Part shown: positions 10,688 to 11,078 of the stretch, one piece after another
Layout: the number at the start of each line of letters is the position of its first letter
How positions within the stretch are numbered: the first letter of the stretch is position 1
Source of the DNA: a virus
Virus record (IMG/VR): IMGVR_UViG_3300019889_000011
Length of the DNA stretch: 64,000 nucleotides
Direction: 5' to 3' (one strand)
Program-made: the position numbers and the translations under genes
Notes under the pieces: model-generated
What the model saw: only the letters and a program-made list of their open reading frames with translations
Told to the model about the DNA's origin: nothing
Databases searched by the model: none

Positions 10688-10719
10688 GAGTGAGCCACGC
10701 ACGCTGCGCTGGCTCACTC
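10688..10719 (+). promoter_or_regulatory. Long near-perfect hairpin in the leader of the S10-like gene (terminator or attenuator-like)
   Basis: GAGTGAGCCACGCA/TGCGCTGGCTCACTC inverted repeat (14-bp stem, one bulge) about 40 nt upstream of ATG 10761. It is followed by CCTTT but no strong T-run. Confidence 0.4.
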
Positions 10720-10760
10720 TCCCCACCTTTGAAAACACACAGAGAGGAAAGCAGGAACGC

Positions 10761-11078
10761 ATGGTAGGACAAAGATTGAGGATTCGGCTGAAAGCGTATG
10801 ACCATCGGGAACTAGACGCAGCCACAGAGAGGGTGCTCGCCACTGCCAAAGGCACCGGCTCAGTGGTGGTGGGGCCGGTTCCGCTGCCGACCGTGCGCGG
10901 CAAGTATTGCGTACTGCGGTCTCCGCACGGCGACAAAAAATCACGTGAGGCGTTCGAGATGCGCACACACAAGCGGCTCATTGACGTCATCGAACCGACG
11001 AAGCAGACGGTCGAGGCACTGATGAAGCTGGAGCTTCCGGCAGGTATCAACGTTGAGGTTGAGGCTTTCGAGAACTAG
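10761..11078 (+). CDS. rpsJ: Ribosomal protein uS10 (RpsJ/NusE) homolog, stand-alone
   Basis: Full-length collinear similarity to bacterial S10 (RIRLKA.DHR..D........A...G....GP.PLPT......VL.SPH..K..R...E.RTH.RL.D...PT..T..AL..L.L.AG..V......). No rplC/rplD follow. Confidence 0.85.

Follow-up and report, generated by a model that had tools for sequence, protein, structure and literature searches.

A stand-alone uS10/NusE gene in the early operon of a group of tailed phages of Acidobacteriota

Ribosomal protein uS10 is an essential protein of the 30S head and the docking point for NusG in the coupling of translation to transcription, and it also serves as NusE, the antitermination subunit for which lambdoid phages rely on their host. 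The presence of a uS10-like open reading frame at 10761-11078 on the plus strand of a 64-kb viral DNA stretch (the window) raised the question of whether this gene belongs to the phage, and which of the two roles of uS10 its product would serve. The ORF, starting with ATG and encoding 105 aa plus stop, matched Pfam Ribosomal_S10 (PF00338) over the full length of the profile (positions 1-98 of 98) with 116.4 bits (E 7e-34), above the curated cut-off of 21.2 bits. The protein also aligned with solved uS10 structures, both with a mycobacterial uS10 chain (ungapped over residues 1-100, E 2e-38) and with the 103-aa uS10 chain present in 395 PDB entries (ungapped, E 9e-34). The original prediction of an end-to-end uS10 homolog was thus borne out, and as the alignment to solved uS10 was gap-free, the residue numbering of E. 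coli S10 could be used directly. The long, 16S rRNA-inserting beta-hairpin loop (residues 46-67 of E. coli S10) was present at full length, and the alignments with loop-deleted NusE constructs in PDB reached residue 44 only. The ORF is a true full-length uS10/NusE homolog of the phage. A Shine-Dalgarno-like purine tract was located at 10743-10756 on the plus strand, with AGAGGA at -18 to -13 and AGGA at -8 to -5 relative to the ATG, and a purine tract of the AGAGAGGAA type was also found upstream of the S10 start in the related contigs L009, L010, and L006.

The window was phage DNA throughout. The plus strand from approximately 1 to 13.7 kb carried genes for an MT-A70 methylase, a PD-(D/E)XK nuclease, an SMC-like ATPase, a DUF1376 protein, a DnaB helicase, and an HNH endonuclease, followed by a gene designated here as gene X, the S10 gene, small ORFs, and a Band_7/SPFH protein gene. 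The minus strand encoded a tyrosine integrase at 24.8-26.1 kb, as well as the tape measure protein, HK97-type capsid, prohead protease, portal, TerL, TerS, and a ParB-methylase. The placement in a phage early region was therefore confirmed, with replication-type genes upstream and the structural genes and integrase elsewhere in the window; the surrounding phage genes put S10 inside the early/replication operon, approximately 13 kb long, of a tailed, integrase-bearing, and probably temperate phage. The S10 start was 87 nt past the stop of gene X (10002-10673, plus strand), and the next gene of the operon (11097-11258, plus strand), encoding a 53-aa protein of phrog_33676, began 18 nt past the S10 stop. 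The canonical rpsJ locus has rplC-rplD-rplW-rplB downstream and often tuf upstream, whereas the phage S10 has neither. Indeed, a tblastn search of the 64-kb window with the proteins of one cellular acidobacterial S10 operon detected none of L3, L4, L23, L2, S19, L22, and S3 (best E 0.2), in agreement with the earlier observation that rplC, rplD, and rplW do not follow the gene; L3 or L4 genes nearby, which would have marked a host S10 operon, were not found. The window contained no tRNA genes, and no Rfam family scored above the gathering score anywhere in it.

A second, smaller head module was seen at 58145-61058 on the minus strand, consisting of genes for a prohead protease (58145-58894), an HK97-type capsid (58907-60091) in which two segments were 74-75% identical in nucleotide sequence to the main capsid gene (43227-44426), and a small terminase (60558-61058). 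This module may represent a satellite-like element, or else another, partial prophage beside the main phage. The first 169 positions of the window were repeated at 57956-58124 with 96% identity. The phage encoded two DNA methyltransferases, which were a ParB_N-N6_N4_Mtase fusion (49532-50803, minus strand) adjoining the terminase genes, and the MT-A70 enzyme (1-851, plus strand) at the left edge of the window. The 5' end of the latter gene (30-169) lay inside the duplicated segment, and its true start may be upstream of the window. An AT-rich tandem repeat at 54653-54747 (a 9-10 nt unit in approximately 10 copies), located before the plus-strand genes at 55.2 kb, may be an origin or a regulatory region.

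The identical S10 protein with the same gene order was found in at least five independent assemblies besides the window, namely the ENA assembly ERZ27267804 and four Logan assemblies of the runs SRR7026474-77. In addition, diverged 105-aa copies of S10 (69-90% amino acid identity) were present at the same position, after the ortholog of gene X, in phage contigs. These were L009 (89% identity), the closest diverged relative, P0006/L010 (79%), P0049/L007-L008 (71%, on a 60-kb contig), P0026/L006 (70%, on a 62-kb contig), P0037/L023, and P0055/L024, the cluster members of which were seen in dozens of contigs reaching 77 kb in length. The gene is no assembly artefact, and the hallmark genes, the five assemblies, and the diverged relatives place a ribosomal-protein gene reproducibly in a bona fide viral context.

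The nearest cellular S10 proteins showed 70-73% identity to the phage copy, and the named ones were from Acidobacteriota (Terriglobales, Candidatus Korobacteraceae, and 'Acidobacteriota bacterium'). In a neighbor-joining tree of 68 distinct sequences, constructed by a custom implementation with 500 replicates, 13 phage S10 sequences formed one clade in 488 of the 500 bootstraps, next to the S10 of Acidobacteriota. The comparison of cellular and viral S10 that had been proposed as a check thus gave a separate viral clade of single origin. Common changes in this clade were I6L, E24K/R/T/N, I25V/M, and L77I, at positions where the cellular residues were otherwise invariant. Some 30 positions varied among the phage copies but were invariant in cellular S10. 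When a database of 5.8 billion proteins was searched with a profile built from the phage sequences, nine phage clusters scored at least 203 bits and all cellular S10 scored 197 bits or less. These findings indicated a phage S10 clade that is real but small. The mean protein distance was 0.274 within the phage clade versus 0.088 among the cellular relatives, so the phage S10 has evolved approximately threefold faster than cellular S10. The Nei-Gojobori method gave dN/dS of 0.089 at dS 0.84 for the window versus L009, 0.107 at dS 0.60 for L007 versus L023, and 0.06-0.15 across the phage pairs with finite dS, three pairs being saturated; judging from these ratios, the phage S10 has clearly been under long-term purifying selection. 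The GC3 of the S10 gene was 0.69 in the window and 0.68-0.70 in the phage S10 genes, compared with the window gene average of 0.67 and 0.79-0.87 in cellular acidobacterial rpsJ. The codon composition was phage-like and unlike that of cellular rpsJ. The simplest history would be a single capture from an acidobacterial host followed by long residence in phages and vertical descent into three sub-lineages.

Gene X, a conserved core gene of the phage group, was the immediate upstream neighbor wherever S10 was present. The 223-aa protein had a predicted beta-barrel core, a long disordered tail that was poly-acidic and then basic, and a conserved 10-residue motif at the C-terminal end; it gave no Pfam match, no PHROG match, and no confident structural match. 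The family comprised 31 clusters, every one at least 48% identical, and was restricted to the phage group; one X-bearing relative was binned in a MAG of Pyrinomonadaceae. Three X-bearing relatives lacked S10 and carried other genes after X, encoding 441-aa and 624-aa proteins in L028/L029, 72-aa and 209-aa proteins in L030, and a glycoside hydrolase in L031. From this comparison, the position 3' of gene X is a variable cargo slot.

A stable hairpin was located between gene X and S10 at 10687-10720 on the plus strand, 14 nt past the stop of gene X and 40 nt before the S10 ATG. It was composed of a 5' arm (10687-10701), a loop (10702-10704), and a 3' arm (10705-10720), the stem having 15 pairs (11 + 4) with one bulged C at 10709, so that the size given in the original prediction (14 bp) was essentially right; the start position of that prediction, 10688, lies in the 5' arm. 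The predicted dG was -24.7 kcal/mol with a z-score of -4.26, and one of 200 shuffled sequences was as stable; the hairpin is unlikely to have arisen by chance. L009 kept the hairpin with two fully compensatory pair changes in the lower stem (G-C to A-U and A-U to G-C), and two further pairs differed from the window on one side only. L006 and L024 had unrelated hairpins at the same place, and L007, L023, and L010 had spacers of 200-280 nt with repeat arrays instead. No T-run was found after the hairpin, the tail being CCCCACCTTTGAAAAC; the consensus terminator scan made no call, and the terminator rules of Acidobacteriota may differ. The promoter and terminator scan between gene X and S10 also detected nothing convincing. 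The proposal that the hairpin is an autoregulatory or attenuator leader of S10 was not supported, because it matched no S10 or ribosomal-protein leader model in Rfam, lay just past the stop of X, and was replaced by different elements in the relatives. The latter two features fit a generic terminator or stabiliser of gene X, and the element looks like a generic terminator, attenuator, or 3'-end stabiliser of gene X that would be read through by the S10 message, with nothing specific to S10. The S10 operon of E. coli has a leader acting as an L4-mediated attenuator, along with BoxA-type autoregulation of rpsJ (PMC5725501). The phage locus resembles this leader in having a structured RNA element upstream of the S10 gene, but differs from it in that the element is a simple stem, belongs to no Rfam family, and is conserved in sequence no further than L009.

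The 9-mer GAGTGAGCC was present in both arms of the hairpin, at 10688-10696 on the plus strand and at 10711-10719 on the minus strand. The relatives contained strictly strand-specific arrays of alternating 18-nt units, GAGAGCACC-N9 and GAGTGAACC-N9, with a 36-nt super-period. These arrays reached approximately 900 nt with dozens of units and filled the spacers before a gene for a protein of approximately 293 aa, gene X, and S10; they were located at 4527-5448 and 6451-6882 in L024, at 5263-5610, 6604-6883, and 7738-7813 in L007, at 7814-7958 in L023, and at 3215-3723, 4714-5013, and 5803-5948 in L010. The window had no arrays (9 motif matches versus 7.5 expected), the exception being the hairpin arms, which form an inverted pair of the array 9-mer family. 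The combination of conserved 9-mers and variable 9-nt spacers suggests repeated candidate protein-binding sites on DNA or RNA, and we know of no described element like these alternating 18-nt arrays. A 10-mer, CTTTGAAAAC, was located directly 3' of the hairpin at 10727-10736 and was unique in the window. We take it to resemble the 3' part of the Gram-positive rrn boxA without the 5' GCUC-type core. It was dropped as a boxA candidate, being not enriched in the window and deleted in the closest relative L009.

The two interaction surfaces of S10 showed different patterns of conservation among the phage copies. The 22-residue loop (46-67) holds S10 in 16S rRNA, and antitermination in E. coli does not require it (PMC2800207, PMC8249722). 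NusB is contacted by helix alpha1 and strand beta2 through H15, R16, D19, and V26 (PMC8341153), where R16 stacks on U8 of BoxA and H15 positions E81 of NusB (PMC3177189). The ribosome-insertion loop of the phage S10 (codons 46-67, 10896-10961, plus strand) was nearly invariant, 17 of the 22 positions being identical among 13 phage sequences, with pN of 0.095 and pN/pS of 0.14 at synonymous divergence near saturation. The NusB/BoxA-contact face, formed by helix alpha1 and the start of beta2 (codons 12-37, 10794-10871, plus strand), was the fastest-evolving segment, with pN of 0.31 and pN/pS of 0.42. Helix alpha1 has evolved three to four times faster than the loop in the phage copies.

The window copy retained H15, R16, D19, R72, and A86, and had the substitutions V26L, R31G, and V57G. 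H15 and D19 were invariant in all 14 phage copies compared, and R16 was lost in three of the 14 (G in L006, H in L007 and L023). Position 26 was V, L, or I across the clade, E24 was K, R, T, or N in every copy, and R31 was replaced in nearly all of them. R72 was invariant in the clade, and A86 was changed to H or S in the P0055/P0160 sub-clade. The nusE100 mutation is presumably R72G, so that R72 of the phage S10 would correspond to the nusE100 position. The nusE71 mutation is A86D (PMC2800207). At the loop tip, codon 57 (10929-10931) specified Gly in the sub-clade of the window, where the cellular consensus is Val, and most other phage copies had V. Substitutions of V57 alter the susceptibility to tetracycline and tigecycline, with V57G raising MICs only minimally in E. 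coli (PMC8249722). The idea of tetracycline resistance was set aside given this minimal effect and the V kept by most other phage copies.

The original prediction had considered that a phage S10 could bias antitermination or alter ribosome composition. Here the evidence leans to ribosome binding, because the loop is frozen though dispensable for the NusE function, and the NusB helix is the fastest-evolving part with losses of R16. A protein acting only as free NusE has no reason to keep the loop, and loop conservation therefore provides the best evidence for selected 16S rRNA binding and ribosome entry. The best explanation, which we put forward tentatively from these sequence comparisons, is a phage-owned functional uS10 paralogue that enters 30S subunits. 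In the proposed scheme, an ancestral phage of this small, integrase-bearing and tailed group would have captured uS10 once, from an Acidobacteriota host, and the gene would occupy the variable slot just 3' of the core gene X, towards the end of the rightward early/replication operon. Operon transcripts that pass through the hairpin 3' of gene X would most likely include S10, and translation would start from a purine-rich ribosome-binding site belonging to S10 itself. Since the complete uS10 fold is kept, including the 22-residue loop inserting into 16S rRNA, 30S entry would be its most likely action. During infection or induction, the phage S10 would enter 30S subunits, replacing or joining host uS10, and the outcome would be ribosomes with a phage-specified head surface or sustained 30S production, with a possible effect on translation or on the coupling of ribosome and RNA polymerase. 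Some caution applies to this 30S scheme. Conservation in cellular S10, too, is highest in the loop, and part of the loop conservation in the phages therefore reflects a general constraint; the invariant H15 and D19 of the phage clade also fit a retained NusB interaction. As uS10 is a tertiary assembly protein of 30S (PMC10931766), outside the set of loosely bound exchangeable proteins, its replacement in mature ribosomes may be inefficient. The ribosomal and NusE roles are compatible and can coexist, as in the host.

The main rival, possible but in our view rather unlikely, is a free NusE-type factor. Extra S10 off the ribosome would bind host NusB/BoxA and/or the C-terminal domain of NusG, and RNA polymerase transcribing long phage operons would thereby withstand Rho-dependent termination, much as lambda achieves by using host NusE. 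For the window copy, such a role is possible as far as the residues indicate, since it keeps the NusB/BoxA contacts H15, R16, and D19, a conservative V26L, and the genetically defined R72 and A86. Across the clade, H15 and D19 are likewise kept in every copy, but the NusB face as a whole is the least conserved part of the phage S10, the BoxA-stacking R16 is replaced by G or H in three lineages, nearly all copies lack R31, and one sub-clade has H or S in place of A86, whereas the loop, which this role does not need, is strongly conserved. The location inside a long early operon of approximately 13 kb agrees with a free NusE, yet the window had no match to the E. coli-type boxA consensus GYTCTTTRA (0 versus 1.4 expected), a consensus that may not be acidobacterial, and searches of 48 window ORFs against Pfam and of 20 against PHROGs revealed no Nus-, N-, or Q-like partner. 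A precedent for S10 dosage comes from E. coli, in which the sRNA MotR raises uS10 levels and extra S10 beyond ribosome uptake is proposed to raise antitermination of long operons, including flagellar ones (PMC10931766). A phage copy would likewise raise the S10 supply, although MotR regulates the chromosomal rpsJ and the phage case concerns a second gene. The antitermination complexes of lambda N and rrn (NusB-NusE-BoxA and NusE-NusG CTD) contain the same protein family with the residues that the window copy keeps. Unlike the lambdoid systems, which use host S10, the S10 phage encodes its own copy, and it showed neither a boxA/nut-like site nor an N-like partner; unlike host NusE in the lambda and rrn complexes, its NusB face is not conserved across the clade. 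The papers found on lambdoid systems describe no phage-encoded NusE.

It is unlikely, though worth stating, that the phage S10 is the first virus-encoded Nus factor, supplied early in infection and re-specifying the S10-NusG interface that couples the ribosome to RNA polymerase and competes with Rho. If so, phage-modified ribosomes or the free protein would shield long operons from Rho-dependent termination without an N-like protein, and the accelerated, lineage-specific changes E24K/R, R31 loss, A86H/S, D97N, and K101E in alpha1, alpha2, and beta4 would be interface adaptations.

Interference with the host appears quite improbable. A dominant-negative S10 would sequester host NusB or NusG or poison 30S assembly, leading to the shut-down of host rRNA or ribosome synthesis, or would alternatively serve as a decoy for an S10-targeting host defence. 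The roughly threefold acceleration over cellular S10 is concentrated on the surface helix alpha1, and the fixed charge change at E24 with the loss of R31 fits an altered interaction surface, but the protein is under strong purifying selection overall with every core and loop residue kept. Moreover, no defence-related neighbor was identified, and the slot is filled by unrelated cargo in other relatives.

A neutral passenger, in the sense of freshly acquired host DNA with no phage role, is very improbable and largely refuted. The slot 3' of gene X is indeed variable, but S10 has been kept in three sub-lineages with up to 30% amino acid divergence, dN/dS stays low although dS is near saturation, amelioration of the base composition is complete, and the copies form a monophyletic clade specific to phages. 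A chimeric assembly or a host S10 operon, by which the gene would be a cellular rpsJ, is already refuted despite the acidobacterial nearest cellular match (70-73% identity), as no tuf, rplC, rplD, or rplW is near the gene, the phage context on both sides is identical in the five independent assemblies, and in the true cellular acidobacterial loci L011 and L014, the ORFs after S10 have the sizes expected for the rest of the operon.

A tblastn search of GenBank phages with S10 gave 13 matches, all below 60% identity. In MT835564, the match examined, S10 was followed by ORFs sized like L3-L4-L23-L2, indicating host DNA. Other matches came from bacterial WGS records or from fragments lacking annotation, and this search yielded no genuine S10 of a cultured phage. 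The IMG/VR scan with the single S10 protein gave no match, and the alignment scan of IMG/VR detected two S10 loci with 47-53% identity. Both were rejected, one being a tuf-rpsJ host flank beside phage genes and the other lying at a contig end, and neither fell in the phage clade. In the IMG/VR contig L025 (17-1378), phage-like genes for an SLT lysozyme and a YqaJ recombinase took the place of rplC directly 3' of tuf (EF-Tu) and rpsJ. A prophage may have integrated immediately past rpsJ, or the viral call may have retained a host flank. The phage S10 matched phrog_35964, a PHROG without functional annotation (E 5e-13), and some S10-like sequence therefore exists in that collection of viruses and prophages. 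We found no report of a phage-encoded S10/uS10 in the literature.

The survey of Mizuno et al. (2019) applied 106 ribosomal-protein profiles to reference viruses and 424,225 viral contigs, and in the sections of that paper drawn on here, Ribosomal_S10 appears only in the list of query profiles, apart from E. coli S10 in the ribosome mass-spectrometry tables (PMC6375957). The virus-encoded proteins given in these sections are bS21, bL12, bL9, bL31, bL33, bS6, uS9, uS15, and HPF (PMC6375957), and phage bS21 has also been described elsewhere (PMC9723584). According to the survey, viruses favour loosely bound, exchangeable proteins, namely bS21, bL12, bL9, bL31, and bL33 (PMC6375957). The original view that uS10 is not commonly virus-encoded agrees with these sections, in which S10 was queried and none was reported, and the present gene is unusual in this respect. 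Like the known cases, the phage S10 is a single host-derived gene that is fixed, under purifying selection, and presumed to replace or supplement the host protein. Unlike them, uS10 is a tertiary protein of the 30S head with an rRNA-inserted loop, outside the exchangeable set, and has a second life as a transcription factor; exchangeability is a tendency of viral ribosomal proteins and no strict criterion. The hosts of the S10 phages, Acidobacteriota, are absent from the eight host phyla given in the 2019 survey. Virus-encoded ribosomal proteins were already known, and what appears to be new here is the addition to them of uS10, a protein doubling as NusE.

The viral ribosomal proteins found so far have been mostly peripheral and exchangeable, bS21 above all. 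A uS10 kept for long in phages offers a handle on whether phages can build specialised ribosomes with a core protein, and on a second question of whether the S10-NusG-Rho axis is a target of phages that do not follow the lambda paradigm. The contrast between the frozen ribosome loop and the fast NusB face yields a testable prediction on which S10 role the phage uses. The carriage of ribosomal proteins is extended to phages of Acidobacteriota, an abundant and poorly studied soil phylum, in which a virus may adjust host ribosomes or transcription by its own S10.
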